Position numbers and translations under genes: made by a program. From a virus: a DNA stretch of 25,010 nucleotides. The notes under the pieces were generated by a model. The model was not told the origin of the DNA. It saw nothing but the letters and a program-made list of their open reading frames with translations, and made no database searches. Position 1 is the first letter of the stretch; each line of letters begins with the position of its first letter. The DNA lies in UHGV virus genome UHGV-0271208. One strand, written 5' to 3'. Positions 237-23,008 of the stretch are shown here, in pieces.

Positions 237-884
237 TTACTTCCATCCACACGCTTTTTGAAGTGGCTTCAATGCCTCTGACAGACCAGCAACATCAAAT
301 GTCGCACTCACGGGACTTTCATTGTAAGGCGTGATCTGAGTAAACATTGAGTTAGCCTGGCTCAGCGCCTTGACGAACTCGATGACATTGCCACGATAAA
401 ATACCGATTTGGTATCGCTAGATATGTCCCATGTTTTCGTTTTTGCCTTCTGTTTATCCAAGCGAGATAACATCTGTGTTTCGTTCAACCCAAGATAGGT
501 ATCCCAATTGAGGAAAAGTTCTGTTTTTTTCTCGCGGCAAGTGATGTAAAGACTTGGTGTGATCGATTCCCCAAACTGCGACCGGAAAGAATCATTAGCA
601 GAAAGGCTAACATAAACATTCTCTGAATCATCCACGGGTGAAGTTTTCGTGGATACCTGCCATTTTCCAACACCTACTACTGGCTTAGCCTCTTCGGCTA
701 CTTTCGGTGGAAGAACCTTATCGTAACAAGCTAAACGCGCATCACTTTTTGCCTCGGATTGGCATTTCATTAATGCGTCATTGTTAATATCGGCTTTAAC
801 TGGTTCTACCGCATACGCTGTTGATACAGCAGAAGAGCAAAGCGCCATAGCAATGATTATCTTTTTCATACCATTACCTTTCAT
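237..884 (-). CDS. Secreted (periplasmic) protein of unknown function, cargo gene
   Basis: 215-aa ORF with an N-terminal signal peptide (MKKIIIAMALCSSAVSTAYA, likely signal-peptidase I cleavage after AYA). Its start overlaps the upstream gene stop as ATGA (translational coupling). No family recognised by eye. Confidence 0.7.
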   Translation of the reverse strand: MKGNGMKKIIIAMALCSSAVSTAYAVEPVKADINNDALMKCQSEAKSDARLACYDKVLPPKVAEEAKPVVGVGKWQVSTKTSPVDDSENVYVSLSANDSFRSQFGESITPSLYITCREKKTELFLNWDTYLGLNETQMLSRLDKQKAKTKTWDISSDTKSVFYRGNVIEFVKALSQANSMFTQITPYNESPVSATFDVAGLSEALKPLQKACGWK

Positions 885-1213
885 GATTTCGGGCGAGTAA
901 AGAAAACAAACATTCCGATAATGATATCGCCAATAACCCAGATGGTTCCCAGCATCATCATCCCCAGCCCCGTACCAATTGCGGCTCCGGCCCGTTCTGC
1001 GTCTGAGGCTGCGTTATTGATAACGTCACTACTGCCGCCAGCCCCGGCAAAAATGCAATAGATCATAAAGATGTTAAACAGGATAAATATCCACTTAACG
1101 ATCTTGCCAAAAAATGAGCGCTTCGGCTTTCTGACCTGATGGCCGCAAGACGGACATTTAAACGCTGAATCACTAATTTCTTTACTGCATTCCGGGCAGT
1201 TTACTAATGCCAT
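881..1213 (-). CDS. Zinc-ribbon membrane protein (CPxC...CPxC followed by two hydrophobic helices)
   Basis: ORF 881-1234; the likely start is the third ATG (1213), which has AGGA 4-5 nt upstream and gives MALVNCPECSKEISDSAFKCPSCGH, a zinc ribbon, followed by two predicted transmembrane segments. Start uncertain (1213, 1228 or 1234). Confidence 0.65.
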   Translation of the reverse strand: MALVNCPECSKEISDSAFKCPSCGHQVRKPKRSFFGKIVKWIFILFNIFMIYCIFAGAGGSSDVINNAASDAERAGAAIGTGLGMMMLGTIWVIGDIIIGMFVFFTRPKS

Positions 1214-1280
1214 TTTCCTAGACTCCATAGACATGGTTACATAACCGCCATAAAGCCTATCAGTTGATTTTGTTTGAATA

Positions 1281-2881: not shown

Positions 2882-4075
2882 ATGGCCACTAACTACCATC
2901 ACGGTGTAACCGTCACGGAAACCACCGACCTTAGCACGATGATCACCGACATTGATTCGGCGGTGATCGGCGTTGTCTGCACCGCTGATGATGCGGACGA
3001 AACAGCGTTCCCGCTGGATACCCCTGTACTGATCACCCGCGTGGCTAACATGCTGGGCAAGGCAGGTAAAACCGGCACCCTGTTTACCACCTTGAAAGCG
3101 ATTTCAGACCAGACCAGCCCGCAAACCATTGTGATCCGCGTTGCTGATGCTGCAAATATCGAACCGCCAGAAGGCGGCACCGCACAGACACAGGATCAAC
3201 TGGTTATTGGCGGCACCGATGCAAACGGACGCTTTACCGGCATGTACGCGCTGCTGTCTGCCGAAATGCGCGTAGGCGTGCGCCCGCGTGTGCTGGCTGT
3301 TCCCGGTCTTGATACGGAAGCGGTGGCCGCACAACTCGGCGTCATTGCCGAAAAGCTGCGCGCGTTTGCTTACGTGGCAGCGAACGGCTGCAACAGCATC
3401 GCCGAAGTGAAGGAATACCGCGAACAGTTCTCCCAGCGTGAAATGATGGTTATCTGGCCTAATTTCATCTGCTACGACACCAACGCCGGAGCGAATGCCA
3501 CCGTGCCCGTGGGTGCCCATGCGGTTGGGATGCGCGCCAAAATCGACGCAACGCAGGGCTGGCATAAAACCATTTCCAACGTGCCCGTTAATAACGTGCT
3601 GGGGATGGATCGGGATATCTATTTCACGTTGCAGGGCACCGATACCGACGCCGACGAACTGAACGCAGCAGGCGTTACCACGCTGATCAAGCAGGACGGC
3701 TACCGCATCTGGGGATCGCGTACCTGCGACGCGGAAACGTATATCTTCGAAAGCTATACCCGAACCGCGCAGATCGTTGCGGATACCGTCGCCGAAGCAC
3801 ATTTCGCCTATGTTGATAAACCGCTTACCCCGTCGCTGGTAAAGGACATTGTGGACGGCATCAATAAGAAGCTGACCTCATATGTGACGGCTGGCAAGCT
3901 GCTGGGCGCCCGCTGCTGGTATGACCCGGAACCGAATACCTCGGAAACCCTGCGCAATGGTCAACTGACCATTAAGTACAACTACACCCCTGTTCCACCG
4001 CTGGAAAATCTCAGCCTGGTACAGGAGTTCACCGACGAATATTTCGCTACGTTTTCCAGCGCAGTGAATAACTAA
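2882..4075 (+). CDS. FI: Contractile tail sheath protein (P2 FI-like)
   Basis: 397-aa ORF; the N-terminus (YHHGV.V) and overall pattern resemble the P2 FI sheath family. GAGG SD 7 nt upstream. Followed by tube, E/E', T and U in P2 order. Confidence 0.9.
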   Translation: MATNYHHGVTVTETTDLSTMITDIDSAVIGVVCTADDADETAFPLDTPVLITRVANMLGKAGKTGTLFTTLKAISDQTSPQTIVIRVADAANIEPPEGGTAQTQDQLVIGGTDANGRFTGMYALLSAEMRVGVRPRVLAVPGLDTEAVAAQLGVIAEKLRAFAYVAANGCNSIAEVKEYREQFSQREMMVIWPNFICYDTNAGANATVPVGAHAVGMRAKIDATQGWHKTISNVPVNNVLGMDRDIYFTLQGTDTDADELNAAGVTTLIKQDGYRIWGSRTCDAETYIFESYTRTAQIVADTVAEAHFAYVDKPLTPSLVKDIVDGINKKLTSYVTAGKLLGARCWYDPEPNTSETLRNGQLTIKYNYTPVPPLENLSLVQEFTDEYFATFSSAVNN

Positions 4076-4087
4076 CCGGGGGCGCTT

Positions 4088-4603
4088 ATGGCACTGCCTA
4101 AGAAACTCAAATATTTCAATATGTTCTTTGACGGGGATAACTACTTCGGCATGGTGCCGGAAATCACCCCCGCCAAACTCACCAAAAAAACCGAAGACTA
4201 CCAGGCGGGCGGTATGCCGGGTTCGGTTGCGGTGGATCTGGGCTTCGACGCTGGCGCCCTGGATATGGATATCACGCTGGGCGGCATGGATGCAGGGCTA
4301 ATGAAAAAATGGGGCGTTACCACTGCGGACGGAATGCAGGTGCGCTTTGCTGGCTCTTACCAGGACGATGCGACCGGCGACGCCGTACCGTGCGAAATCC
4401 AGACGCGTGGCCGCTTCACTGAACTGGATCCCGGTTCGGCAAAGGTTGGGGATGATACTTCGCATAAGTACACCCTGAAAAACACCTATTACAAGCTGAC
4501 CATCAATAGCGAAGAAATTATCGAAATTGATGTGCTCAACATGATCTACAAAGTTGCCGGTGTGGATGTGCTGGAAAAACACCGCGCTAACATCGGCTTA
4601 TAA
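4088..4603 (+). CDS. FII: Tail tube protein (P2 FII-like)
   Basis: 171-aa ORF 12 nt after FI; size and position match P2 FII. Confidence 0.85.
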   Translation: MALPKKLKYFNMFFDGDNYFGMVPEITPAKLTKKTEDYQAGGMPGSVAVDLGFDAGALDMDITLGGMDAGLMKKWGVTTADGMQVRFAGSYQDDATGDAVPCEIQTRGRFTELDPGSAKVGDDTSHKYTLKNTYYKLTINSEEIIEIDVLNMIYKVAGVDVLEKHRANIGL

Positions 4604-4617
4604 GGAAACCCGGCACC

Positions 4618-4953
4618 ATGAGCAAGACCAAAGAAAACACCGTTATTCTTACCGCCCCTATTACGCGCGGTAAGACCAAAATCACCGAAGTGGCGATCAC
4701 TTCCGTGCTTAGACAGGCTGGATCACTGCGCGGCTTAAAAGCCTATGACGTGCTGACGTCCAACTATGACGCGCTGGTTATTCTGCTGCCCCGCGTTACC
4801 GCTCCGGCATTAACCGCCGATGAGATTGCCCGAATGGATACCTGGGATTTTTGCCAGTTAGCCAACGCGGTGGTTGATTTTTTGCAACCCTCTTCGGATC
4901 TGACCGCGACGGATACGGGCAACGAATCATCCGATGCCCCTGCGAACGCATAG
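4618..4953 (+). CDS. E: Tail assembly chaperone (P2 gpE-like), zero-frame product
   Basis: 111-aa ORF with AAGGAA SD; lies between the tube and tape-measure genes and contains a TTTTTTG slippery heptamer in frame. Confidence 0.8.
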   Translation: MSKTKENTVILTAPITRGKTKITEVAITSVLRQAGSLRGLKAYDVLTSNYDALVILLPRVTAPALTADEIARMDTWDFCQLANAVVDFLQPSSDLTATDTGNESSDAPANA

Positions 4954-5078
4954 AAGACCTGATGGCAGATATCGCCGTCATATTCCACTGGCGGCCGGTA
5001 GAGATGGACGCCATGACGGTACAGGAAATACTGTTATGGCGTGATCAGGCGGCTGCGCGCAGTGGTGGAGATCACTAA
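4618..5078 (+). CDS. E': E+E' fusion chaperone made by programmed -1 frameshift at T6G (4878-4884)
   Basis: The heptamer T_TTT_TTG sits in the zero frame at 4878-4884. The -1 frame stays open for 64 codons (ATLFGSDRDGYGQRIIRCPCERIEDLMADIAVIFHWRPVEMDAMTVQEILLWRDQAAARSGGDH) and ends at TAA 5076-5078, overlapping the T start as TAAATG. Same arrangement as the P2 E/E' frameshift. Confidence 0.6.
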
Positions 5079-8000
5079 ATGGCAGACCGCAATTTAAATA
5101 TCAGGGTGGCATTCAGCGCCCTGAATAATATGTCCCGCCCTGTCAACGCGGCGCGCCAGAGTGCCGCCGCGTTGGCGTCTCAAATCAATCAGACCAAAAC
5201 CAGCATTAAAGGGCTTGAGCGTCAGGCAACCAGCTTTGACCGCCTCACCGCAGCCAATAAAAAAACCACCGAACAACTGGCCCAGGCGAAAGAACAGGCC
5301 CGGCAAATGGCGGCGGCTTATGGCCCGTTACGCCAGCGCAGCGCCGAACAGGTTGCCGCCCTCAATCAGCAACGTGCAGCCATTCGCCAGTTAACCCAGC
5401 AGCAGAAAGGCGAGCAGACGCAGCTTAACCAGTTGCGCGCCAGCTTCTACAGCGAAGGCATTGCGATCAGCAGCGCCAGCCGGGCGACGGAACAGATCAA
5501 CCAGCGCACCGCGCAATACAACCGCCAGCTTGCCGAACAGCAGCGACGGCTTGACGCTGTTAACCAGGCGCAGGCCCGTTACAGCCGCGCCAAAGAAACC
5601 GGCGAAAAGATGATGAGCGGGGGGATGAAAACCGCCGCAGTAGGGGCGGCAACCCTCGCACCTGTCGCCGCTGCGGTTAAATCATACAGCAGCCTTGAAG
5701 ACGCCATGAAAGGCGTAGCCAAACAGGTAAACGGCTTGCGTGACGACAGCGGCAACCGCACCCCGCAGTATGAAGAAATGCAGCGGGCGATCATGGATGC
5801 CAGCGAAAAGCTACCAATGGCTAACGGCGCTGTTGACTATGCCGCCCTGGTCGAAGGTGGCGCGCGCATGGGCGTGGCAAACAGCGATGATCCGTGGGAA
5901 AAACAAAAAGCCGATCTGCTGGCTTTCGCCAGCATGGCGGCAAAAGCTTCGGTAGCCTTTGAACTGCCCGCCGATCAGCTTTCTGAAAGCCTCGGTAAGA
6001 TTGCCGGGCTGTATAAAATCCCTACCCAGAATATTGAACAGTTAGGCGACGCCATAAACTACCTGGACGATAACGCGAAGTCGAAAGGCTCCGATATTAT
6101 CGACGTGCTCCAGCGCGTTGGCGGACTTGCCAGCCAACTGGATTACAAGCAAGCCGCCGCGCTGGGTTCCACCTTCCTGACGCTTGGATCACCTGCCGAA
6201 GTTGCCGCCAGCGCAACCAATGCAATGGTGCGCGAACTATCGATCGCCACAGTACAAAGCGATAAATTTTTGGGTGCGCTGGATGAAATCGGCGTCAATG
6301 CTGAAAAAGTCCAGAAAAGCATGTCAGTGGACGCGATGGGCACGATCATTTCAGTGCTGGAAGCGTCCAAAAAACTTGCACCAGATAAGCAGGTAGCCAA
6401 CCTTACTCAGATTTTCGGTAAAGAGTTCGGCGATGATGCGCAGAAACTTGCGAACAACCTGCCCGAACTACGCCGCCAGATAGAACTGACGCAGGGCGCA
6501 GCCGCTAAAGGTTCCATGAATCGGGAATCTGATATCAATAAAGCGTCCCTTTCAGCTCAGTGGCAACTGACCAAAACCGGCGCGGTTAACGCATTGAGTT
6601 CAGCAGGGGAAACGCTCCGCGAACCGCTGATGGATATCATGCTTACCGTCAGTAAGGTGGTTGGCAGCGTCCGCCGCTGGGTTGAGGCAAACCCGGCTCT
6701 GGTTGGCTCAATCATGAAAGTCACCGCAGCCATAGGCGCGTTGCTGGTTGTCGTGGGTGGCCTGATGCTGACCATCGGCGCAGTGCTCGGCCCGATGGCA
6801 CTTGTTCGCCTCAGCTTCACCACGCTGGCTGGCTCCGGTGGGGTAACTCCCCTCATAGGCTCGCTGGGAAAATTATCCAGCACATTACGCGGGCTGATCC
6901 CCTCACTATCTGGCGTGGGCCGAAGTATTAAAGACTGGCCTGCCCTCTTCCGATCTGCTGCGTCTGGCATTACCCAATTTAGTAAACAAGCTATTGGCGG
7001 GTTAAACACAGCGTTAATGGCACTTTCACGCGGTGCTGTTGCTGCCGGACAGGGGCTATTTACCCTATTCACAAGGCCTATGACGGCTATAACCTGGCTT
7101 GGTAATGGCCTCAGAACTCTGGCGACCTCCGGTTTCGGCGCTTTGCTGAACGTTGGACGCACCGTAATGATGGCGTTGGGTGGCGGGTTATCATTACTTC
7201 TTAGCCCTATTGGAATACTGGTAATCGCTTTATCAGCAGCAGCGATCGCCGTTATTAAATTCTGGGAACCTATAAAAGCCTTTTTCACTGGCTTTTACAC
7301 CGGGTTAATGAGTGGCTTACAGCCTTTAACCTCAGCATTTAGTACAGCCTTTGCACCACTAGCCCCACTCTTTGACTCTATCGGTAATGCTGTCGGTGGC
7401 GTCTGGGAGTGGTTCACAAAACTATTCGAACCTATCCAGTTCTCCAGCGAAGCGCTAGCCTCCTGCACCAGTGCCGGGGAAACGTTCGGTAAGGTTGTAG
7501 GTAACGCTCTATCTGCATTAACACCAATAATCGAAGGAATAGCGCGCGGTATAGGATGGGTACTGGAAAAACTCGGCGCCATCCCCGACGCAACAAAAGC
7601 AGCGCAGCAAGCTGCGGAAAGTATGCACAAAGACCCTGTTGTCTGGGAGTGGGATCCGCAGCAAAAGAAAATGGTTAAAAAGGGTTGGAACTGGTCGCCG
7701 AAAGACGATCAGCAGAAGAAAACCAACCAGAAGCAACAGCAGGCCATTGACCAGCAGAAAAAGCAGGAAAGCTTAATTAACTCGCTCAAGGGCCCGGCCA
7801 ACATCGTGCCGAAGATGAGCAGCAGCCTGGATAAGATCGCCACCAATACCACGGAGAAGAAAGACGGCCCCGGCGAAATTGTCTTCAAGAATAAGCAGCC
7901 CTATATCCCGATCCGTGGCGGATATTCGGAACCGCTTAAGCAGGCACAGCGCCAGCTACCATCCCTTACCGATTGGGTGACGCAGCAGGCCGGATCGCTG

Positions 8001-8249
8001 ATCGCTTCCGTTACCCCCTGGCAGGTTGAGAAGCCCGCCGCACGGATGCCTGTTTCGGCGTCTCCGTCTGCGGCTTCCGTCGCTGCGCTGATGCCTGCTC
8101 CGGGTGGCGATGTATATAACCTTAACTTCGACTTTAGCGGCCAGAAACTGGATGAAGAAACCATTATCAGGCGCGTGCGCGAAGAACTTGCGTTAGCGAA
8201 GCAACAGGCCGACCGGCGCAAGCGCTCCCAACTGACCGATCACGTCTAA
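5079..8249 (+). CDS. T: Tail tape measure protein (P2 gpT-like), 1056 aa
   Basis: Long ORF right after E/E' with an Ala/Gln-rich coiled-coil N-terminal third, central Gly/Ala-rich hydrophobic segments and a Lys/Gln-rich C-terminal region; position and composition typical of tape measure proteins. Confidence 0.9.
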   Translation: MADRNLNIRVAFSALNNMSRPVNAARQSAAALASQINQTKTSIKGLERQATSFDRLTAANKKTTEQLAQAKEQARQMAAAYGPLRQRSAEQVAALNQQRAAIRQLTQQQKGEQTQLNQLRASFYSEGIAISSASRATEQINQRTAQYNRQLAEQQRRLDAVNQAQARYSRAKETGEKMMSGGMKTAAVGAATLAPVAAAVKSYSSLEDAMKGVAKQVNGLRDDSGNRTPQYEEMQRAIMDASEKLPMANGAVDYAALVEGGARMGVANSDDPWEKQKADLLAFASMAAKASVAFELPADQLSESLGKIAGLYKIPTQNIEQLGDAINYLDDNAKSKGSDIIDVLQRVGGLASQLDYKQAAALGSTFLTLGSPAEVAASATNAMVRELSIATVQSDKFLGALDEIGVNAEKVQKSMSVDAMGTIISVLEASKKLAPDKQVANLTQIFGKEFGDDAQKLANNLPELRRQIELTQGAAAKGSMNRESDINKASLSAQWQLTKTGAVNALSSAGETLREPLMDIMLTVSKVVGSVRRWVEANPALVGSIMKVTAAIGALLVVVGGLMLTIGAVLGPMALVRLSFTTLAGSGGVTPLIGSLGKLSSTLRGLIPSLSGVGRSIKDWPALFRSAASGITQFSKQAIGGLNTALMALSRGAVAAGQGLFTLFTRPMTAITWLGNGLRTLATSGFGALLNVGRTVMMALGGGLSLLLSPIGILVIALSAAAIAVIKFWEPIKAFFTGFYTGLMSGLQPLTSAFSTAFAPLAPLFDSIGNAVGGVWEWFTKLFEPIQFSSEALASCTSAGETFGKVVGNALSALTPIIEGIARGIGWVLEKLGAIPDATKAAQQAAESMHKDPVVWEWDPQQKKMVKKGWNWSPKDDQQKKTNQKQQQAIDQQKKQESLINSLKGPANIVPKMSSSLDKIATNTTEKKDGPGEIVFKNKQPYIPIRGGYSEPLKQAQRQLPSLTDWVTQQAGSLIASVTPWQVEKPAARMPVSASPSAASVAALMPAPGGDVYNLNFDFSGQKLDEETIIRRVREELALAKQQADRRKRSQLTDHV

Positions 8250-8258
8250 GGCAATATC

Positions 8259-8708
8259 ATGATGATGATTCTGGGGATGTTCCCCTTTTCACTGCAAACC
8301 ACACCTTACCAGAGTGCGAATAAAACCAACTCCTGGCGGCACGTCAAAAACGATCGCGTGGGGAAATCCCCGCGCTATCAGTTCATCGGCGCAGATGAAG
8401 AACCGTTCGTACTCAGCGGCACGCTGTACCCCGAAATAAGCGGCGGTGATGTGTCGCTTGTCATGCTGGAAACTATGGCTTTTTCCGGGCGCCCGTGGCC
8501 CCTGATAGAAGGCACGGGCAGGATCTACGGCATGTATGTAATTGAGCAGATCACGCAAAACCGGACGGAGTTTTTTAAGGACGGGAAGGCAAAGAAAATT
8601 GATTTCACGCTCAACCTGAAACGGGTAAGCGAGGACATACGGGAAAAGCTGGCTGAAACCACCACCGACGATCTCTTCTCTCTGGTGAAAACCAACCTTT
8701 CGATATAA
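8259..8708 (+). CDS. U: Tail protein (P2 gpU-like)
   Basis: 149-aa ORF 10 nt after T; size and position match P2 gpU. Confidence 0.8.
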   Translation: MMMILGMFPFSLQTTPYQSANKTNSWRHVKNDRVGKSPRYQFIGADEEPFVLSGTLYPEISGGDVSLVMLETMAFSGRPWPLIEGTGRIYGMYVIEQITQNRTEFFKDGKAKKIDFTLNLKRVSEDIREKLAETTTDDLFSLVKTNLSI

Positions 8709-8710
8709 GA

Positions 8711-8738
8711 AAAGCGGGCCATTGCCCGCTTCGTCTTC
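8711..8738 (+). terminator. Possible terminator after U
   Basis: Stem AAGCGGGC/GCCCGCTT at 8712-8731 with loop CATT, followed by CGTCTTCC (a weak U-tract). Confidence 0.4.
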
Positions 8739-8814
8739 CGTAATACACCACCATAACTGACCGTGCTACAGCACCGTTAAAAGTGACCGTACTCGATACA
8801 CACGGCCAGCACGG

Positions 8815-9141
8815 TTATAACCGGCCATGCGTGCCGGAATTCTTATCTCTGGTCGCTGGGAATTTTTTGTAAAGCGTAGATATCCCAACATCATAAATTA
8901 TGGCAACCCTCCGGCGCGATTCCCCTGCCGCTATTAACCTACCCGCCTGCGCCCATTGTTCTGGTGTAAGTTTGGGACGTCGTCCACCAATTCGTCCCTG
9001 TGCGCGAGCAGCTTCCAGGCCAGCTTTTGTTCGTTCAACAATCAGTTCTCGCAGGGTCTGAACGTAAGGCGAATCCTGGGAGTCGGTTCTTACTGCATCC
9101 TTTTCACTGGGGCTTGATGGGCCCAAGCGTGGATCACTCAC
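8815..9141 (-). pseudogene. Truncated serine DNA invertase (Cin/Gin/Hin/Pin family); C-terminal HTH part only
   Basis: 108-aa ORF with RELIVERTKAGLEAARAQGRIGGRRPKLTPEQWAQAGRLIAAG...VAIIYDVGISTLYKKFPA, which matches the C-terminal half of Hin/Gin-type invertases. The ORF begins at GTG and no catalytic N-terminal domain is found in any frame upstream (9141-9524). Confidence 0.7.
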
Positions 9142-9524
9142 GCGTCAGTGAGTGGAGCGCGTGTCTCAATAATGACCTCGAGCGTTTTGTCGATATTTTG
9201 GAGAGTCAGATTGAGCTCAGTAAGAGCCGCAATGAGTGGAAGGAGGTTATCTCCGCCGCCACCATAGCCAATGCCTCCACAGCTCTGGATTGGGGGATGG
9301 TTCACGAGGTTGCCGCCGCCACTTACCCGCAGGCACCCGGCACATACTGGTGGATTAACTGTTAACATAATTACCTCTCAAATTTAAATTGGGCAGAGAT
9401 GCCAGCATCCAGGCTCGCGCCTGGACGATTGTCTGATGATGAAAAGTGCAGTTTAATCTGTGGCTGGATTATCTGGATGCACTGGAGCTGGTTGATACCT
9501 CCAGTGCGCCAGATATTGAATGGC

Positions 9525-9935
9525 CTACTCCTCCGGCAGTTCAGGCCAGATGACATCCGGTGCGGTGCTGGTATCTGTTGCCGTCACAGCGTCGATATAA
9601 TCCAGCACAGCGTTAAGTCGGGTAGTTTCTTCTTGCGTCAGTTTACGCCCGGCCTGCAGCTTTAACTGAATCACGCTGATATTGACCATTGCTGCGTCTA
9701 ACAGCGACTGTTTTTTCTGTTCAGCATCAGCTACCAGTTCATCATGAGAACGTTCCGGAGGGAGCGGCGCAGTAAATACCCCGTCTGAATACCCCCAGCC
9801 AATTCCGGGATGCTCACTGATATCAGAAATATCAATGAGCTGCTGATTATCCGGCACTGTGAATTCAGCCTCGCCATCCCAGACAATGACATTCACAACC
9901 ATCTCATTTTCAATAACTGCATATGACGCATTCAT
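9525..9935 (-). CDS. Tail fibre assembly protein (Tfa; P1 U / P2 G-like)
   Basis: ORF 9525-9959; the likely start is ATG 9935, overlapping the fibre stop as TAATG, giving MNASYAVIENE. The C-terminal APDVIWPELPEE resembles tail-fibre chaperones. Confidence 0.85.
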   Translation of the reverse strand: MNASYAVIENEMVVNVIVWDGEAEFTVPDNQQLIDISDISEHPGIGWGYSDGVFTAPLPPERSHDELVADAEQKKQSLLDAAMVNISVIQLKLQAGRKLTQEETTRLNAVLDYIDAVTATDTSTAPDVIWPELPEE

Positions 9936-12649
9936 TATGCAAACTCCTCGATAATACAAATCCCATCAGCACCTTTCCCGCCTGTCATACTGGTTCCGCT
10001 ATAACCGGCATCGTATGCGCCACCGCCACCTGAACCATATGCCTTACCACTAACACCACCGCCAGCGCCTGCGCGTCCACCGCCCCCCCAGTACGATGTT
10101 CCGCCTTCACCGCTGACGCCGATATTTCCGGACTGACCGTCGCCACCATTTCCACCAGTGATGCTGATATCGCCAGTACTCGGCACACCTCCGTTACCGC
10201 CGTTTGTGTTTGTGGTTCCTACTTTTCCGGCACCTTCGCCACCGATAGCAATTAACGATGCGAACGAACTATAGCCGCCATTAAGGCCGTAATTTGCTCC
10301 AATACCACCGGCTCCACCTGCGCCGATAGTGACTGGATAACTATTCTGTGTCGGGGTCATTATTGAAATTATTGTTCCACCGGCCCCGCCGCCAGCACCG
10401 AAAAACGTTTCATTATTGGATATAGCCTGGCAGCCGCCCCCACCACCACCGCCACCCGTTATTGTGACCCTGATCCGTTTTGTTCCTGGGGTTGGGGTAT
10501 ACGTACCTGATGAAGTGAAAACCTGGGTATTCACCAAACGCCCAACATATCCGCTTGAATCGCTCAGGCCAAGGTTAGCAGCAGTTAAAGTAATATTTGC
10601 AGAACCATCAAACTTAACACCGTTGATAGTGCGTGCAGTCTGTAGTTTCGTTGCGGTTGCGGCATTACCGGTAGTGCTCTGATTACCTGCTTTATTCACG
10701 CCCGGCAGGTCGATATTGGCACTACCATCGAACGACACTCCGCCGATTGTGCGTGCTGTTTGCAGTTTTGTGGCGGTGGATGCATTACCTGTCAAAGATC
10801 CACTAAGAGCCACGGCACTAAGAGACTTAACACTTACATCCTGACCCCATCCGGAAACAACAACCTGACTCCACGCTGCCCAGCTTCCATTAACAACAAA
10901 GCGAACGTATATACGTTTTGTGTCGCTGTTAATCAGCGTTTGCATGTTCGCATAATCTGATCCCGTAGTCTTACGAATCGACTCTACACGAACCAAAAAG
11001 TTACCGCTTACGCCGTCAGGCTTATTGGTAATATTTGCACCACCTGCGACAGTTTTGCATTGATAGTATTTAACGGATCCAGCTTCTGTATTAGCAATAA
11101 TCAAGTCGTTTAAATCAATAGTCCGGCCGTCAATGGCTTCCGGCTCGATGGCTCCTGCTATCCCGGCACTGAATGTGGCAGCGGCTGAAAACGCTGTCTT
11201 ACCTTTGAAAGTCTGTTGAGAACTCCAGGTATTAGCTGTGCTCAACAGGGGGATCTTTTCGCCGCTGGTTCCGATTTCTCTTAAACCAAGGTATTGGATA
11301 ACAGCCAGTGTGCTTGTTTTAGCCAGGATATCGCGACCGACTGACGTTAAATCAGTCTGGGAAACAGTGTCTGTACCGGTAAAGTACGGCAATTTATTTG
11401 CGCCTGTCGCAAGACCAGCAAGCGCGGTTAAAGTTGCATCCAGAGGCTGTTTGCCTGCCAGCGCATTTGTCATTGTTGTCGCAAAGTTCGGGTCATTGCC
11501 CAGTGCTGCTGCAAGCTCATTCAGGGTATCAAGAGCTTCAGGTGATGAGCCGACCAATGCAGAGATAGCAGCTCTTACATAAGCGGTCGTAGCAATCTGC
11601 GTGTTATTCGTACCCTGTGCAGCGGTAGGCGCAGTAGGTATTCCCGTTAATGCAGGACTTGCTAAAGGAGCTTTAAGAGCCAGAGCATTGTTGATAGTTG
11701 TGCTGAAATTCGGGTCGTTATTGATCGCAGCAGCTATTTCTTTAAGCGTATCCAGAGTGCCAGGTGCACCGTTGATAAGTGCCGTTATAGCTGCCTTAAC
11801 AAAGGCTGTATTTGCGATCTGCGTGCTGTTTGTACCTTGCGCTGCCGTCGGCGCGGTTGGCGTTCCTGTCAGACTCGGGCTTTCTATTGGCGCTTTGGTA
11901 TCAGCCAGCTCTTTTACAGACTTAACGGCTTTAGGGGTAGCCGCCATTGTTTCGCTGTCGCTGTTAGTTGCGCTACTGAGCTGAACTAATCCCTTTTGTG
12001 TTGTGCTTGCATCCTGCGCCGTATACTTGCTTTTAGCCAGATCGTAGGCTTTTTTAACCGCCAGCGAACTTGCAGCGACATCACTTCTGGTACTGGTTAC
12101 AGAGTCGGAAATTTCAATGCCTATCGCGAGATCGATGCGGTCGGATACATCTATCATTTCCTTAGTAATAGCAGATACGCCAGCAGGGATATTCACCGTA
12201 CAAACAAGCAGTTCTCCATCTCCTAACTGATATGAATCGGTATAGGTTCTGGCAACAAATTCAGCCGCATGAATATGTGACGCGGTATTAACCTGATAAG
12301 AATCTTCTCCAAGGAGGTATCTTCCCTTCAGCACAATTGCATATTTCTTACCTGCGCTAAGTGCAAGAGAAATATCCTTACGCTGCTGAATAGTTACCTG
12401 GTAGAATTCACCAATATTCACTGACGCCGCGCCAGCGGTTTTATCACCATCCACTGAGGTGATTAACAGGTTCATCCCACCGCCAGGCTTAGGAAAAAAA
12501 CCGGCATAAAATCCAGGGTCAACAATTCCCCTGAATTTTCGGTTTAGCGCGGCTGACAGATATGGTTCGTGGTATTGCACATCAGCCACCAGAGCCAACG
12601 ACTCGGGTGATGGGTAAGTAACCGATGTGACAACTGTAACGTCATTCAT
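9935..12649 (-). CDS. Long tail fibre protein (P1 S-like) with Gly-rich C-terminal domain
   Basis: Contains repeated tail-fibre motifs (GLVQLSSATNSDSETMAATPKAVKSV, TGTPTAPTAAQGTNSTQIANTAFV, ALDTLNELAAALGNDPNF) and a C-terminal Gly-rich domain including GGGGGGGG. Likely start MNDVTVV at 12649 with AAGGA SD; the ORF track extends to 12736. Confidence 0.85.
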   Translation of the reverse strand: MNDVTVVTSVTYPSPESLALVADVQYHEPYLSAALNRKFRGIVDPGFYAGFFPKPGGGMNLLITSVDGDKTAGAASVNIGEFYQVTIQQRKDISLALSAGKKYAIVLKGRYLLGEDSYQVNTASHIHAAEFVARTYTDSYQLGDGELLVCTVNIPAGVSAITKEMIDVSDRIDLAIGIEISDSVTSTRSDVAASSLAVKKAYDLAKSKYTAQDASTTQKGLVQLSSATNSDSETMAATPKAVKSVKELADTKAPIESPSLTGTPTAPTAAQGTNSTQIANTAFVKAAITALINGAPGTLDTLKEIAAAINNDPNFSTTINNALALKAPLASPALTGIPTAPTAAQGTNNTQIATTAYVRAAISALVGSSPEALDTLNELAAALGNDPNFATTMTNALAGKQPLDATLTALAGLATGANKLPYFTGTDTVSQTDLTSVGRDILAKTSTLAVIQYLGLREIGTSGEKIPLLSTANTWSSQQTFKGKTAFSAAATFSAGIAGAIEPEAIDGRTIDLNDLIIANTEAGSVKYYQCKTVAGGANITNKPDGVSGNFLVRVESIRKTTGSDYANMQTLINSDTKRIYVRFVVNGSWAAWSQVVVSGWGQDVSVKSLSAVALSGSLTGNASTATKLQTARTIGGVSFDGSANIDLPGVNKAGNQSTTGNAATATKLQTARTINGVKFDGSANITLTAANLGLSDSSGYVGRLVNTQVFTSSGTYTPTPGTKRIRVTITGGGGGGGGCQAISNNETFFGAGGGAGGTIISIMTPTQNSYPVTIGAGGAGGIGANYGLNGGYSSFASLIAIGGEGAGKVGTTNTNGGNGGVPSTGDISITGGNGGDGQSGNIGVSGEGGTSYWGGGGRAGAGGGVSGKAYGSGGGGAYDAGYSGTSMTGGKGADGICIIEEFA

Positions 12650-12660
12650 CAAGCATATCC

Positions 12661-13095
12661 TTATGCTGTAGTCGTGTTTATGGCCATAACTGCGGTATAT
12701 GTTTTGCCCACATACAGCGAGTCTTCCTGGACACAAATAATGGCGATTGGCTTGTTCTCGTTATCCAGAACAACCAGAGTGTTGAATGGGTAGTTTTTCC
12801 CTTTCTGCAACTGGCTTTGATCAAGGTCCATTCGGACAGTAATTATCCCGCCTGAGTAGGTTGGGACGAGGTTGATGGTGCAAAATTTACTGGTCAGTTC
12901 TGCCAGCTCGAAAGCCTTTGGCAGTTCTCCAATCTCATAAGTGCCATCTCCTTTCTTAGTAACCAGTGAACTGGTACCGAAAACGGCCTTGCTGATTAAA
13001 AATCGAGAGCCTTTGTTAATGGACGATTCAGCGCGCCGCTGATAGTAATAGTCCAACAACTGACTCTTATAGAGGTTTGTTGAGACGTCAGACAT
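12661..13095 (-). CDS. Tail-fibre-associated structural protein (position of P1 R)
   Basis: 144-aa ORF ending 12 nt before the fibre start. Assignment is by gene order only. Confidence 0.55.
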   Translation of the reverse strand: MSDVSTNLYKSQLLDYYYQRRAESSINKGSRFLISKAVFGTSSLVTKKGDGTYEIGELPKAFELAELTSKFCTINLVPTYSGGIITVRMDLDQSQLQKGKNYPFNTLVVLDNENKPIAIICVQEDSLYVGKTYTAVMAINTTTA

Positions 13096-13173
13096 GATTT
13101 TCCCTAATCAATGTTGTGAAGCCTCATTGTAAGAGAAGTAACTTGTCACCCCGCCCTGCGGACGGGGTGATTG

Positions 13174-14013
13174 TCAGGCGTCGCTATCCAGCAACAAATC
13201 ATCTGCGCGTGTGCGATCAAACGTAGGTGTCGCTTTCACAATAGTGCCACCAGGCGTTGCGGTGATCGGGGCGCTAATCGACGTAACTCCAGTAAGCGAA
13301 GTTGTATCCGAAGTTTCAAACCAGCAGTACGCTTTTTCGGTATCAGAAATCTCGTTCAAAGTGATCATGTCGGCCTGTTCATTCACAACAACCGACAAAT
13401 AGAGCGTAAGCCCATCAAACACTATATGCAGTGGCAGTAGAGGCTTTACGAACTGATTAAACTTTCTGAGAATTTCTTCTGTAATTGCGGACTGATCTAT
13501 CGTGCCAGTAATACCCATTGTCCGGGCCAGGTCGTTTATGGGAATACTGATCATCCCTCTGGAAGTCAGAAACATCTCACCGAATGTGCCGCCGGTAGTT
13601 TCCAGTGTGCTTTCTGGTATTAGAACTGTGCCATAGGGATGACGTTCAAGGTCCACCGGTGCATATATCGGATCCCATAAAACAGAAATACCATTAAATT
13701 CGCGGTAAATTGTCTGGTTTATAGGGCGTTCAGTCCCCTTAAAGTGAATCTCATCAAGCCGCTGTTGTAACAACATCGGAACGGAAGATGAGTTTGAGGT
13801 TCTGATAGTAAAGAACTGGCCAAGTTCATTTGTCCTGGTCTCCAGATCCTCCTTGCTCATGGAAAAAATAGACTTCCGGTTGGTAATTCGCTCCAACCAT
13901 GGGTCAACAAAGGTGTCCATCATTGACTGAACCAAATCAGCCAATGATTTATAGAGCAATGACTTTTGCTTAGCTGATGTAAGCCGATTATTAAACCAGG
14001 AACGTTGCATCAC
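13174..14013 (-). CDS. Baseplate or tail structural protein (position of P1 gene 16)
   Basis: 279-aa ORF whose start overlaps the upstream stop by 4 nt. Assignment is by gene order. Confidence 0.55.
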   Translation of the reverse strand: MMQRSWFNNRLTSAKQKSLLYKSLADLVQSMMDTFVDPWLERITNRKSIFSMSKEDLETRTNELGQFFTIRTSNSSSVPMLLQQRLDEIHFKGTERPINQTIYREFNGISVLWDPIYAPVDLERHPYGTVLIPESTLETTGGTFGEMFLTSRGMISIPINDLARTMGITGTIDQSAITEEILRKFNQFVKPLLPLHIVFDGLTLYLSVVVNEQADMITLNEISDTEKAYCWFETSDTTSLTGVTSISAPITATPGGTIVKATPTFDRTRADDLLLDSDA

Positions 14014-15443
14014 TCCTCCTCATACGAAATATTAAAGGTGGAGTTTTCTGTATCCAGATAAACGAAATCGTAAAAGCCGTTGGACTCATTCCACTCGACA
14101 AATTCCAGATAAAAGTCGCGGAAATAACCCAGCGTTTCGATAAATGCCCAAACGTCTTTTTTCTTGATCAGGATGTACTTGCCGACACCGTTCGGATCAA
14201 AGAAATTTGAGTCGCGCCCAAATTTTGTTTCCAGTGCCGACTTCAACTCATCAGTCACGTTCTCAATAGTCAGGCTTGCCGATATCCGCCCGGTGATGGT
14301 TATCTTAAATGGTAGTTTTCTGACCTCTTTATAAGAGAATTTCTTGTTCAGTTCATTCGGTACCTTCTTAAAGGCAGTCAGGATCATTTCTTCAAGCTCT
14401 GACTGGCTTTTATTTGGATGCCATCCTGAAATAAATATCTTATTGATATTCTGAACATTATAAGCACCATCTAATTTCTCTTGCTGGCCTTCGCCCCATG
14501 CCTTTACCCAGGACAGCCCAGGGATGTTACGAACCAGAAAATACGTATAGTCCCCGCCCCATACGACCTGATCATCATAGGCAAGGTAATATTGTGCACG
14601 GTTACGTGTGATCTCCGTTGTTTCAGCATCGGTACCTGCGGTTATAGGTGTCGTTGTCTTAACTGAAATCAAATTAGCTAAATTAGCCGCAGAATCGACA
14701 GGCGTCAGGTTTTGGCCAGCAACCAGGGTTATATCGCCGTTGGTGCACCATACCTTAAGCGTAATTGTCGAACCTTCTGGCGGTATTTGCCCAATTAGCC
14801 CATCGCCGAATCGAACCCCCAACTGCTCGGATGGTTTATAAAACTCAACGTAGACCTGGCTTTTACTACCGGCTAACCGGAACATAGTGCTGGAAGACCA
14901 CTGCGTGGTCTTACCATCGGTCGTCACGAATACTTCCAGCTTATAGCAGACAGCAGTAAGAGCCTTTGATAACACGACTTCCAGAAATTCTTTGGCTGCC
15001 GTAACGGTATATGTCACCTCCTGGATTTCCAACTGTGCCACTTCTACCGTACCGGTGCCGTCAACCAACCTGCATACATCCATAGTCATGTAAGGGTACT
15101 GGTCGTCAGATATTAAAGGCATGTTTTTGGGGATTACCGCTGGAGCATCTTCACTTGTGGCGGTGATCTCAATCATCCCCGATGACGGTGTTGGCTTGGT
15201 ACCAACGTAACTATTCGTTTCTGCCGCTGCCAGGATAGAGGAACGCCGCGTCGCGGTCGATATAAAGCCTTCAGCCAGCGCCGCATCGGCATACTGAAAG
15301 CACCTGTAGACAATCTGGGTAATAAACAATGTCAGCATCGAGACAAATTGAGAGCCGACAAACTTCGACCAGAATGAATCTTTCTCGACAAGCTCTTCAA
15401 ACTCTGCACGAATACTGTCTTTAGTCGGTGTTGTTTTACTCAT
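14010..15443 (-). CDS. Baseplate protein (position of P1 bplA)
   Basis: 477-aa ORF translationally coupled to both neighbours by 4-nt overlaps. Assignment is by gene order. Confidence 0.55.
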   Translation of the reverse strand: MSKTTPTKDSIRAEFEELVEKDSFWSKFVGSQFVSMLTLFITQIVYRCFQYADAALAEGFISTATRRSSILAAAETNSYVGTKPTPSSGMIEITATSEDAPAVIPKNMPLISDDQYPYMTMDVCRLVDGTGTVEVAQLEIQEVTYTVTAAKEFLEVVLSKALTAVCYKLEVFVTTDGKTTQWSSSTMFRLAGSKSQVYVEFYKPSEQLGVRFGDGLIGQIPPEGSTITLKVWCTNGDITLVAGQNLTPVDSAANLANLISVKTTTPITAGTDAETTEITRNRAQYYLAYDDQVVWGGDYTYFLVRNIPGLSWVKAWGEGQQEKLDGAYNVQNINKIFISGWHPNKSQSELEEMILTAFKKVPNELNKKFSYKEVRKLPFKITITGRISASLTIENVTDELKSALETKFGRDSNFFDPNGVGKYILIKKKDVWAFIETLGYFRDFYLEFVEWNESNGFYDFVYLDTENSTFNISYEEE

Positions 15444-15799
15444 AGCACCACGTCCTGTGTGATAGTTATATCCCTGATACGAATGGATATTTTCAACTTA
15501 TCAAAAGCATCTCCCTCGGCTACTGACAAGCCAGAAATCGGTATGTCAGGTAAATCTACCGTCAGTTTTTGCAACAGCATTGCCTCAACCGCAATTTGAA
15601 CATGCGACAAGTTGGTCGGTTCGTGTTTAAACTGCGGTAAAACATTGCCCCATGACGGATCTCCGTATACCTCACCCTGATAAGTGTTTAGCCACTCATA
15701 TAAACGAGCGCCCCAGGCCTCCTCCTGGGACTCATACGTTTTTACGCCGGATAACTCCAGCGTCAGCAAAGGATCAATTTCGTTATTGTTGGCCATCAA
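15440..15799 (-). CDS. Small morphogenetic protein (position of P1 pmgA)
   Basis: 119-aa ORF overlapping the stop of the Sit-like gene by 4 nt. Confidence 0.55.
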   Translation of the reverse strand: MMANNNEIDPLLTLELSGVKTYESQEEAWGARLYEWLNTYQGEVYGDPSWGNVLPQFKHEPTNLSHVQIAVEAMLLQKLTVDLPDIPISGLSVAEGDAFDKLKISIRIRDITITQDVVL

Positions 15800-18700
15800 T
15801 CAACTCTCGCGTAGTCATTCATCAACGGATCATCAATTGACAGTGGTACCGTGCGCATAACGCCCGGCTGAGGCGTGCTGACCTTTACGACAGTTCCCTG
15901 GCCTTTCGCCGAGTCTTTGGTGTGCTCTTCAATCCTGGCAAGCAATGAGGTCATCTGCGCAAACAGCCGCTTCGTTTCACCATCAAGTGAAACGGTATTA
16001 TCAGCCAACTGCATTGTCGGCTTGGCACCGGAACCGCCAAGGTCACTAATAACCTGCCCGTCTATCTGCATACGACCGGTTGGTTGCTGCAAATCGTTGG
16101 CGGCAGTCGTCACCTTGGACGTGGAGGCTGGTTCAGTCGCATTATTTTTCCGCATCCCCGGCGAGTTGCGGAGTTTATCGAATAGTCCATCAATCCCCAT
16201 TTGTGCGCCGAGTTGGTCAAAGTAACTTGAGTTGCTGGCCACCGGACGCGCCTCTTCAACTGGCATCGGAGTATCAACATACACATTGCCAGCTGCTGTT
16301 GCGGTCCCCTTCCCTCGTGCACGTTCTTCGAGCGTTCCCTGAACGACTTCCCGACGCATACCCCGGCCATTCATGAATTTGTTGACCAGATCGTTAACGC
16401 CAACAGCATTGCCGATTTTGTCTACCAGACCGCCTTTCTCAAACGGGCTATCACCAGGGGTAAACGCCAGGCCAGTAGACTGATCGATAACAGCGTTATC
16501 AGGCAGTGGTCCCCTCACTCCATATTGCGCCCCACCCTGTGCTCCTGCTCCAGGTGTATAGATTTCACCACCTAAATAGCGAGCACGATGAGTATTGACC
16601 TTGATCGCGTACTCACGGTTTTCTTTCGATAAGTCACCTGTGCCTTTTTTCCACTTATTGATAGTGCCAAACCCAGCGTTATATGCAGTGATGGCCTCGT
16701 TTAAGTCTCCATTGGCTTGCTTCAGATACTTGCTCATGAGAAGAGCCGCAGCTTCTGCCGATTTCACAGGATCAAACGATTCACCTTCAGCTAAGCCAGT
16801 CTCTTCACGAGCAATCCCCGTGAACTGAAACATTCCCAGAGCACCGGTTTGGGATTTTGCATACGGATTACCACCAGATTCAGTTGCAGCAATCGCGTAA
16901 AGAGTGCCTTCTGGAAGACCATATTTATTCTCTAGTTCAGCAAAATACGGAGCCAACTTATCGAGATTTGCCTTACCTTCAGATCCAAGACTTCCGACTT
17001 TTACATCCAAGCGGCCATTGTTGTAGGTATCCGCAGCTTTCTGAATGTCATTCCTGGTGCCAGTGGAATTAAGCGACGATGATGACGAGCTATTTTGACC
17101 AATAGCTTTATCAATTTTCTGCAACGCGCTATTGCCCGTTTCTACGGCATTTGCATTGATAATCTGATTCGCAGTTTCTTTAACTGTTTTATTGCTATCT
17201 TTCGCCGTGTCCAGTGCCGCATTTATCACGCGGGTAACAATATTAGTCTGTTTGGCATCGGATTCAGTTTTAGAATCAGATGTCTCCTGGTGGCTATTAA
17301 CCGGAGCTTTTAACTCTGGAGTGATTTCTTTCGCATTAGCCTCGCCGATCGGATTGGGTATTTTTGATACAATCATTGCCGCAGGGGTATTTTTAACGGC
17401 ATCAACCGCTGCATCTAATGCTTTACCAGGTAAATTTTTAACCCCATCCCAAATATTACCAGCCGCCTCTTTAATGTGTTTCCCTGGGTTCTTAATGAAA
17501 TCAATTGCACTATCAATTGCATCACTGAAAACCTGTTTCAGGTTATCAACAGTAAAGAAGTCTTTGATGGCATCCAGCTTTTCAAGCAGCTTATTAGATG
17601 TATCGCTAAACCATGCTGAAACAGCATCACCAATCTTTGCTGTGTAATCTTCGAACTTGGTAGAAATGGTGTCGCCAAGGTTAGAAATATATGTTTCTAA
17701 GTTGGTAATCCCACTATCAATGGCCTGGGCAATACTTTCCGTCGAAAATGATTGCAACATATTGCCGATATCCTCAAATCCAAGTGATTTGAGAACCTCA
17801 CCAATGGCGCTGCTAATACCAGATACCAGTCCCCCCATATCAAGAACATTGGCTAACGTATAAGCGGCTTTTTGCTGGAATGATGGATCTTGTCCTGATT
17901 TAAGCCCAAACGCTCGACGTTGCGCTTCTGTATCATTCCAACCGGTTACCGCATCATAAATACCTCCAGCCACTGTGCCGACTAAGGGAATTGCGCGTAA
18001 CGCCCCTTTACCAACTGCCTTTAATCCAAGTTTACCTGCTGCCCGGGCAGCCAAATCTCCACCTTCATGGGCGATAGTCTTCTTGCCACCACCGCGTAGC
18101 ATTCCTACAAGTTTCTTTGCCCCCAGAGCGCCAAAAGCGAGTGCTCCAGCTTTTTTCAGCATGCCACGCCCCATTAACAACGACGCGACGCCACCGGCCC
18201 CCTTCCCTAACAGGCTAAATAGTTTGGACAGCAAGCCGCCCTTCTTTTTCCCGGTGTTTTTGGCTATCTGATCAAGGGCGCTGAGAATCTTGTCATTGCC
18301 CTCTTTAATTTCGCTGGTCTGCTCCTGAAGTTCCTGAACTGTCCGTTTTTGGGTGTTAACCTGAACGACATCGGCACTATTTTGCGATTTACGCCTAAAA
18401 AAACCTTTTCTACGGCTGTTATCGTCATTGCCACGAATCACATCGGCAATAGACTTTCTGGCACCATTAAGCGATCCACCAACTTCTTTTGATATCCCGC
18501 CAAGCTCCTTCCCTGCTGCCCACAATGGACCAGCAACGGCATAACCTAACGCATCAACGGCACGAGTCTCTGAAGGGTTACCTATGCCTTCAGCTACTTT
18601 TGACAGTTTTTTTAATAAACCTGATTCAGCATTTAGACGCTCATCATCCTCTTTGCGCCTGGCCTTTTCAGCACGTTCAGCACGGGCATCTTCCGCTGCG

Positions 18701-19485: not shown

Positions 19486-19566
19486 GATCTTATCGCCTAC
19501 CGTTTCGGTTTAAGTTTTTCTTCCAGTTTCTCCAACAGGAAAAACGCATAGGATTCAGTAAGCCTT

Positions 19567-20448
19567 TCAGCGTCCTGAATCGGTATACCCCCATACAAAA
19601 CCAGGTTGGACACTAAGGTCTGATAGCTTTTCAATCCCCACCTGTGGAATGAAGTCGGTAGCCCGAAAGGGCACCCACAGACGGGTATATGCACCCTCTG
19701 TGGACTCCTTTTTATCCTGATTTGGGCATTTATGCGGCGGGAGACGAAGACGCATTTCACCTTTATCGATGTAGCACGGTAAACCATGTTCGAGCTTTTC
19801 ATGAGCCAGTCGGATGTGTGCCGCCAGCTTCATAAATTCAGTATCAATGGCCATCCGTTTAATCGTTTCATAACGACGCTCAGCCTGATCTTCACGAGTA
19901 CCACTAACATCGTTATAAAGCTCACACTGATAAGCGAATTCCCAAAAACGCAAATCAACGATCGCTTCTTTGAATTCCGCGTCGTCTTCAGGTGGCAATG
20001 CTGCACGGCGCATCTCCAGCATTTCCATTGCCCAACCATCAAGCGGCACGATACGCCATTGATAAGGTACTCCCTCTACAGGCACCTCAATATCGTCAAT
20101 GAACGGTTCCACTTCCAGGACCTGGATATCTTCAGCCAGAGCATTCATATCGCAATCGTAATAATGCTCTTTACCGCAATGTTTACAGGTGTAGGTGAAT
20201 GTCTCGACCGGTGTTTCACGGGAGCCGGTAAATATCCACCATAACGCGGTAATCCGGTCCTGCGCCGTCCATGTCAGGGGATCATGTTTCGCGGGTTCAG
20301 CCAGCAAGGCTTTTAAATACGCCGTTGTCTGTTGTTCTTGTTCCTCCGGTGTTATCGAGTTGAAACGCATCGCATCAGCAATATTTGGCTGACGGAACTG
20401 GATCAATTCAGTTGGCCGCGATGGTAGCGGGAAAAGGGGTAAAAGCAT
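19567..20448 (-). CDS. Hypothetical phage structural/morphogenesis protein (position of P1 pmgB)
   Basis: 293-aa ORF just upstream of the Sit-like gene; contains CKHCGKEHYYDCDM, a possible metal-binding motif. Confidence 0.6.
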   Translation of the reverse strand: MLLPLFPLPSRPTELIQFRQPNIADAMRFNSITPEEQEQQTTAYLKALLAEPAKHDPLTWTAQDRITALWWIFTGSRETPVETFTYTCKHCGKEHYYDCDMNALAEDIQVLEVEPFIDDIEVPVEGVPYQWRIVPLDGWAMEMLEMRRAALPPEDDAEFKEAIVDLRFWEFAYQCELYNDVSGTREDQAERRYETIKRMAIDTEFMKLAAHIRLAHEKLEHGLPCYIDKGEMRLRLPPHKCPNQDKKESTEGAYTRLWVPFRATDFIPQVGIEKLSDLSVQPGFVWGYTDSGR

Positions 20449-20462
20449 CCTTGCTCCTTAAT

Positions 20463-21074: not shown

Positions 21075-21084
21075 ATCAGCCTCC

Positions 21085-21675
<591 letters not shown>

Positions 21676-21709
21676 TTACCCGATTCTACGAGTAGTCATT
21701 TGTGACAGG

Positions 21710-22186: not shown

Positions 22187-22247
22187 TAATTTATCTCCTT
22201 TGGATATTAACGATTATCAATATTTTAATTGGTTATCCATAATATAT

Positions 22248-22895: not shown

Positions 22896-22991
22896 TATAA
22901 CCTCACCTGCCTTATAACTCATTTAGGGTACATATTTTCGCCTTTAAAAAAAAGAGGTTATTAGATCCAATTGTGTATTTATTAAGCATGT

Positions 22992-23008
22992 AATGCTCTA
23001 ATAAATTT
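22992..23008 (+). promoter_or_regulatory. P1 C1-repressor operator-like 17-mer (Op51-like)
   Basis: AATGCTCTAATAAATTT is one mismatch from the recalled C1 operator consensus ATTGCTCTAATAAATTT; it lies upstream of the c4/icd/ant region. Confidence 0.6.

Follow-up and report, generated by a model that had tools for sequence, protein, structure and literature searches.

A P2-type E/E+E' -1 frameshift site upstream of the tape measure gene in a SEN4/SEN5-like (Senquatrovirus) prophage

The DNA between the tail tube gene FII and the tape measure gene T of SEN4/SEN5-like prophages raises the question of whether it holds two genes or a single gene that is read in two ways. In the GenBank, RefSeq and PGAP records of this lineage, which include Salmonella and E. 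coli prophages, the first reading frame, E, is labeled 'tail protein', 'hypothetical protein' or 'phage tail assembly protein', and the sequence that follows it, E', is split off as a gene of 24 or 38 aa. We examined this locus in the virus genome UHGV-0271208 (25,010 nucleotides, here called the window), for which the original prediction had proposed that a T6G heptamer brings about a conserved programmed -1 frameshift producing both E and a longer E+E'. We find that the site belongs to a SEN4/SEN5-like (Senquatrovirus) prophage and represents a -1 programmed ribosomal frameshift of the P2 E/E+E' type, and that it is an intact and ordinary one, of which only the annotation in the Senquatrovirus-like lineage is missing.

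The slip site and the homology of the two products

Direct reading of the sequence around the heptamer (gtggttgaTTTTTTGcaacc) places TTTTTTG at 4878-4884, where the E codons GAT (4876-4878), TTT (4879-4881) and TTG (4882-4884) set it in frame 0 as T_TTT_TTG, the only in-frame X_XXY_YYZ heptamer within E (Table 1). In the -1 frame a TGA (4875-4877) lies directly 5' of the heptamer, and past it 64 codons remain open (4884-5075) up to a TAA (5076-5078) that abuts the tape measure ATG at 5079 (TAAATG). Frame 0, in turn, continues after the heptamer for 22 sense codons and the stop of E at 4951-4953. The anatomy put forward in the original prediction, namely a heptamer in the zero frame of E, a 64-codon -1 extension ending exactly at the start of T, and an E that runs 23 codons past the slip site (22 sense codons and the stop), is thus borne out in each of its parts. 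A conceptual fusion, E+E', consists of E residues 1-89 followed by the 64 codons of the -1 frame and is 153 aa in length.

Table 1. Features of the E/E+E' locus and of the adjoining tail genes (positions in the window)
Feature	Position	Strand	Basis
gene FI, tail sheath protein	2882..4075	+	PF04984, PF17482, PF22671
gene FII, tail tube protein, directly upstream of E	4088..4603	+	PF04985 Phage_tube, 4e-61
likely Shine-Dalgarno of E, AAGGA	4602..4606	+	direct sequence reading
gene E, tail assembly chaperone, zero-frame product, 111 aa, ATG start	4618..4953	+	ORF and P2 gpE homology
slippery heptamer T_TTT_TTG, -1 shift site	4878..4884	+	sequence; homologous column in P2, Fels-2, phiCTX and others
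E' segment, 64 -1 codons and TAA	4884..5078	+	translation, PF06528, P2 E' identity, third-position bias
dual-coding overlap: variable 22-aa E tail (frame 0) and E+E' linker (frame -1)	4884..4953	+	substitution pattern
likely Shine-Dalgarno of T, GGTGGAG	5064..5070	+	direct sequence reading
gene T, tape measure protein, 1056 aa	5079..8249	+	PF10145 PhageMin_Tail, 3.3e-21; SEN5 homologue annotated tape measure
gene U, tail protein, 3' of T	8259..8708	+	PF06995 Phage_P2_GpU, 4.7e-39

The likely ribosome-binding sequences also interleave with the neighboring genes: that of E lies 11 nt before its ATG and overlaps the stop codon of FII, and that of T lies inside the final codons of E', 8 nt ahead of the ATG of T. 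Two antisense ORFs across the locus (4764-4988 and 4796-5014) are without a Pfam match and were treated as shadow ORFs.

As a control for chance we used the 22 plausible genes within the window (7425 codons), which contain 28 in-frame X_XXY_YYZ heptamers. Only 2.8% of the in-frame positions in these genes are followed by at least 64 open -1 codons, and the E site alone among the control heptamers has a -1 product that reaches far past the zero-frame stop, by 125 nt. Taken with the homology of E' (E=5e-16), this control puts the arrangement far beyond chance.

In BLASTP searches the zero-frame product of E shares 42% identity with the E portion of P2 gpE, its first 85 aa (E=3e-20), and it matches phrog_103 (3.3e-34); against the Pfam family PF10109 Phage_TAC_7 ('E, or 41 or 14') it scores 23.2 bits, just below the cut-off of 25. 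The E' segment matches PF06528 Phage_P2_GpE with 58.4 bits (cut-off 23, E=4.8e-16), and the extension is 50% identical to P2 E' (E=3e-17); the fusion also matches PHROGs 1756 and 6416. The extension therefore does have homologues among E' proteins, the absence of which would have spoken against the original prediction, and its description there as non-random agrees with both the chance control and the PF06528 match. The alignment with P2 E/E' that had been proposed as a check is continuous through the junction: the 153-aa fusion and the 142-aa P2 E+E' align over their whole lengths (39% identity, E=3e-35), without a break between the two parts (...VVDFL/ATLFG... versus ...VVGFL/VAELG..., the stroke marking the junction). 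Across the family, all 13 aligned members match PF06528 and 12 of the 13 match PF10109. An NCBIfam scan of E and the fusion gave no family match, and PDB sequence searches with both the single sequence and a 13-member profile recovered no solved relative. The position of E between FII (PF04985) and T (PF10145) is also that expected of a chaperone pair upstream of a tape measure gene.

Conservation of the slip arrangement and selection on the -1 frame

A tblastn search of 50,697 phage records with the fusion recovered matches in 413 records, in 385 of which a single place covers at least 80% of the query; in all of the matches listed at this coverage the two pieces lie in two reading frames. 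We then compared 14 distinct annotated relatives, which include P2, a near-identical P2 isolate, Fels-2 and phiCTX as well as phages of Burkholderia, Mannheimia, Vibrio, Yersinia, Erwinia, Enterobacter, Klebsiella and Arsenophonus. In each of the 14, E carries an in-frame slippery heptamer close to its end; the -1 extension behind it is 51-71 codons long and has the motif ..[DE][DA].AD[IVL]A..F.W.P.....[ML]...E...WR..A..R.. in it. When the fusions are aligned with MAFFT, all of them share one slip column except that of the Mannheimia phage, which has an insertion and the heptamer GGGAAAG. A joined -1 frameshift product is annotated for P2, EtG and Milagro; in the P2 entry the shift is placed 1 nt past the equivalent heptamer.

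The same anatomy is seen in 78 of 80 related IMG/VR loci, whose heptamers are T6G in 51 cases, AAATTTT in 14, CCCTTTC in 12 and T6A in three. Two loci depart from this anatomy: in L026 a T7 run brings E and E' into the same frame, and in L031 a further indel lies within E'. Each has the look of a homopolymer or sequencing indel or of a pseudogene. Thus the slip site stands at a homologous column across Peduoviridae, and the arrangement is conserved, as had been claimed. With regard to L026 (IMGVR_UViG_2565956773_000017), the sequence at about 1440-1450 reads CCCTTTTTTTG (T7), compared with CCCTTTTTTG in the sister loci. E and E' form one continuous frame of 185 codons in this locus, so that E+E' would be its zero-frame product; the T7 run could be a sequencing error in the homopolymer or else reflect a naturally fused variant.

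The public annotations imply a different arrangement, in which E' would be a separate gene with a start of its own, either ATG 4962 (38 aa) or ATG 5004 (24 aa), and would be made without a frameshift. An ATG is indeed present at 4962, inside E', and models of 38 aa (SEN5) and 24 aa (PGAP) stand in public records, but the start differs between these two annotation pipelines. Moreover, the column of Met 4962 is not a conserved initiator, being occupied by Val, Ile, Glu or Tyr in relatives, and conservation extends further upstream: the PHROG 1756 match (fusion residues 95-151) begins before this Met, and the -1 frame is open back to the heptamer in all 14 annotated relatives and in the 78 IMG/VR loci. 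The ATG at 4962 is also preceded by only a weak GAAGA, and the codon-position bias of the -1 frame, set out below, is already present in the overlap upstream of it. On these grounds we consider an independent E' gene very improbable.

Comparison of the window with its close relatives (L021, L023 and L024) revealed how substitutions are distributed over the two frames. In the overlap of the E tail and the E+E' linker (4884-4953), 18 of 26 substitutions hit third codon positions of the -1 frame (second positions in frame 0), a bias with a pooled binomial P of 2e-4, for lineages that are not independent of one another. Past the E stop, the corresponding figure is 23 of 35. In terms of residues, the overlap differs from these relatives at 5-10 of 22 positions of the E tail in frame 0 versus 3-4 of 23 when read in the -1 frame. 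In distant relatives the length of this zero-frame tail ranges from 4 to 22 residues, and it displays no conservation. As judged from this pattern of substitutions, selection acts on the -1 frame. Against SEN5 there are zero substitutions from 4859 to 5176, whereas the surrounding region differs at 3.8% of positions; this identical stretch could reflect either constraint or a recombination tract.

Route of the shift and roles of the two products

We regard it as very probable that E and E+E' are expressed via a -1 ribosomal frameshift at 4878-4884. The single start codon at 4618 would then serve both E and E' of this P2-like (SEN4/SEN5-type, Peduoviridae) prophage. The majority of ribosomes would stay in frame 0 until the stop at 4951-4953 and yield the 111-aa chaperone E, and a minority would move back one nucleotide on U_UUU_UUG, with the P-site tRNA-Phe and the A-site tRNA-Leu re-pairing with UUU_UUU. 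After such a slip these ribosomes would translate the 64 -1 codons to the TAA at 5076-5078, giving the 153-aa E+E'. A tandem slip of this kind predicts the junction ...VVDFLATLFGSDR (Phe-Leu) and the tryptic peptide MDTWDFCQLANAVVDFLATLFGSDR (Phe-Leu-Ala); a slip in the P-site only, or an extra U in the mRNA, predicts ...VVDFFATLFGSDR as the junction.

An extra U of this sort could arise by transcriptional slippage, in which the polymerase would add it on the T6 tract and the edited mRNA would encode E+E' in one frame. Being a homopolymer of six T, the site could in principle support this, and the T7 DNA of L026 points to changes in tract length that are at least tolerated or occurring. Efficient bacterial transcriptional slippage usually requires longer runs. 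The homologous sites weigh against it as well: AAATTTT (14/80 loci), CCCTTTC (12/80) and the GGGAAAG of the Mannheimia phage obey the tandem-slippage rule of canonical X_XXY_YYZ sites and, not being homopolymers, are poor tracts for slippage by a polymerase, which favors ribosomal over polymerase slippage and leaves the latter very unlikely for this site. The family in effect offers a small natural experiment, in that one protein junction is served by T6G, T6A, AAATTTT, CCCTTTC and GGGAAAG, and this variety of heptamers at a single junction supports tandem ribosomal slippage for the family. A related notion, that a T6 to T7 change in the DNA or in the transcript might be a second, heritable or transcriptional, setter of the E:E+E' ratio, we consider less probable still than transcriptional slippage itself.

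Examination of the heptamer's surroundings for elements that might stimulate a ribosomal shift gave negative results throughout. Folds of the RNA downstream of the heptamer have z-scores of -0.57 (60 nt) and -1.24 (100 nt), which are not above those of shuffled controls; the equivalent P2 fold has z=0, and the consensus fold of eight relatives, at -3.2 kcal/mol, contains just a weak hairpin about 83 nt downstream. A stem-loop or pseudoknot of the dnaX/IS3 type 5-9 nt after the heptamer was not found, and Rfam gave no match at the slip region at E<=1. Upstream, GGTGGT (4869-4874) was taken up as a Shine-Dalgarno-like stimulator and rejected: it ends 3 nt before the heptamer, the spacing of stimulatory Shine-Dalgarno sequences being 6-17 nt (PMC4066793), and its conservation ends with the enteric relatives. 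The motif, which encodes a conserved Val-Val, is absent in the Burkholderia and Pseudomonas relatives.

This absence of a detectable stimulator agrees with what is reported for P2-like phages. P2 shifts at TTTTTTG to make a 91-aa E and a 142-aa E+E', and for P2 and the Burkholderia P2-like phages no downstream structure is reported (PMC3091744). Furthermore, the high-efficiency heptamers measured in E. coli do not include U_UUU_UUG (PMC4066793). Both this and the missing stimulator count against the frameshift reading, and the choice of heptamer also fits a long form that is needed in small amounts. The slip in the window likewise appears to depend on the heptamer alone, and slipping without a detectable RNA stimulator would again fit a product that is required at a low level.

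By homology to P2 and by analogy with lambda G/GT, the E part common to both products would coat the tape measure protein T, which is the presumed client of both E and E+E'. The E' domain would recruit the tube protein, whereupon tube and sheath would polymerize to the length set by T. We infer the ribosomal nature of the shift, its efficiency and these protein functions from sequence and from analogy with known phages.

Prophage setting and comparison with known systems

The original prediction further saw in the chaperone pair support for a functional tail module. This holds for the genes D, FI, FII, E, T and U, all of which are intact; with the exception of T, which is 82 aa longer, they are equal in length to those of SEN5. 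It does not extend to the P2-type baseplate genes, which are absent from the window because the latter switches to P1-like DNA inside the tail-fibre gene, and the support thus stops short of the prophage as a whole. The heptamer and the open -1 frame might accordingly be a relic, inherited in a defective prophage in which the product no longer matters. The join to P1-like DNA inside the tail-fibre gene, an invertase cut down to its C-terminal 67 residues and the missing baseplate genes speak for such a state, but each of E, E', FI, FII, T, U and D is intact and the DNA from 4859 to 5176 is nucleotide-identical to that of the viable phage SEN5. We think this unlikely, though less so than the other alternatives; moreover, it bears on the present-day use of the element only, not on its identity as a P2-type frameshift site.

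Several further features of the P2-like half of the window were observed. The tape measure protein, at 1056 aa, compares with 974 aa in SEN5 and 977 aa in the E. coli EC09 prophage; its divergent segment (6830-7752) has no nucleotide match to either and contains no tandem repeat. A longer T predicts a longer tail. Prophages of the same type adjoin fieF in 31 of 5426 complete E. coli genomes, and positions 1-206 of the window match this chromosomal flank. Between this chromosomal/att flank and ogr, at the prophage end, are two cargo ORFs (237-1234, minus strand), one coding for a protein of 215 aa that contains a type VI secretion VasI domain (PF11319, 2.7e-13) and the other for a 117-aa zinc-ribbon protein; this cargo stretch has no nucleotide match to SEN5 or the EC09 prophage. 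Gene D (PF05954) and ogr follow at 1606-2724 on the minus strand, upstream of FI and opposite to the plus-strand genes at 2882-8708, as in SEN4/5.

After gene U the window is a mosaic (8700-25010, with a junction zone at 9046-11301). Three segments make up the tail-fibre ORF at 9935-12736 (minus strand): the C-terminal one (9935-10585) shares 98% identity with the fibre of a SEN4-like E. coli prophage, the middle one (10586-11201) has no match in either that prophage or P1, and at 11202 begins DNA that is 95-97% identical to phage P1 and continues to the window's end. The P1-like genes comprise the Sc part of S, R, 16, bplA, pmgA, sit, pmgB, tub, pmgC, sim, c4, icd, ant and kilA, and the P1 cixR site TTCTCTTAAACCAAGGTATTGGATAA is present at 11276-11301. 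None of the complete E. coli genomes and PLSDB plasmids holds the junction region (8200-11700) contiguously, and the GTDB representative genomes contain no exact match to the 40-mer at 10566-10605. The junction is either the outcome of recombination of a P1-like plasmid prophage into a chromosomal P2-like prophage via their shared invertible tail-fibre segment or an assembly chimera. At 8851-9051 on the minus strand, within ORFs 8815-9141 and 9138-9368, is the remnant of a Cin/Pin-type invertase, whose C-terminal 67 residues (the HTH domain) are 70% identical to residues 116-182 of P1 Cin and whose catalytic N-terminal part is missing; the truncation point coincides with a deletion of about 536 nt relative to the E. 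coli PO06101 prophage, and the tail-fibre segment is presumably locked in a single orientation. The homologue of P1 sit, a putative injection transglycosylase/tail ruler (ORF 15796-19485, minus strand), has 1229 aa versus 1140 aa in P1 and contains a 212-nt direct repeat (18875-19086 and 19172-19383, 86% identical, spaced 297 nt) that constitutes an in-frame duplication. Rfam searches recovered the c4-a1b1 target (55.5 bits) and the C4 antisense RNA (70 bits) at 23069-23121 and 23190-23275 on the plus strand, and these P1 immunity elements confirm the right half of the window as a P1-type immI region.

Among known phages, the closest counterparts of the E locus are in SEN4/SEN5 (Senquatrovirus; SEN5_24 and SEN5_23), where the FII-E-T region has 96% DNA identity to the window. 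The slip site and the E' amino acids are identical there and E differs at two residues, but the SEN5 record presents E' as an independent 38-aa CDS. SEN4/SEN5 are known as a plaque-forming myovirus type with a long contractile tail, and the paper that describes them makes no mention of a frameshift (PMC5261728). For the Senquatrovirus-like lineage, the correct model has one start and two products, which a -1 shift at 4884 connects; annotation is where this result has its main value, and it raises no new biological question.

The likeness to P2 extends to the location between FII and T, to TTTTTTG at the homologous codon column (...VV.FL) and to the -1 direction, and in neither phage is a downstream structure detected. 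The P2 record (NC_001895, P2p25/P2p26) annotates E and E+E' as essential tail proteins, and the P2 E/E+E' frameshift is credited to Christie et al. 2002 (as cited in PMC3091744). The differences lie in dimensions and borders. E is 111 aa in the window versus 91 aa in P2, with a zero-frame tail of 22 rather than 6 codons after the slip, and the -1 extension has 64 rather than 57 codons, its linker being longer and containing a Cys. Whereas the E' stop of the window abuts the start of T, that of P2 overlaps it by 8 nt (ATGAGTAA). Gene D, which in the SEN4/5-type lineage lies upstream on the opposite strand, follows U in P2, where D and ogr come after U and the operon runs F-E-T-U-D.

With the frameshift signals of dnaX and IS elements the site has the X_XXY_YYZ heptamer and the -1 direction in common, but their stimulators were not found here. 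The lambda G/GT system offers a likeness of logic, for which no sequence similarity is claimed: a pair of products with a shared N-terminus is encoded between tail or tube genes and the tape measure gene, a -1 slip takes place on an X_XXY_YYZ heptamer, and the long form is the minority product. In lambda, G and GT are made at a ratio of about 30:1, G binds the tape measure protein and T binds the tube protein (PMC5009743). Lambda differs in its G_GGA_AAG heptamer, the type to which the GGGAAAG of the Mannheimia relative belongs, and in its non-contractile tail. The likeness of logic applies equally to the frameshift that is conserved in general among the tail genes of dsDNA phages (Xu, Hendrix and Duda 2004, as cited in PMC3091744 and PMC5009743).
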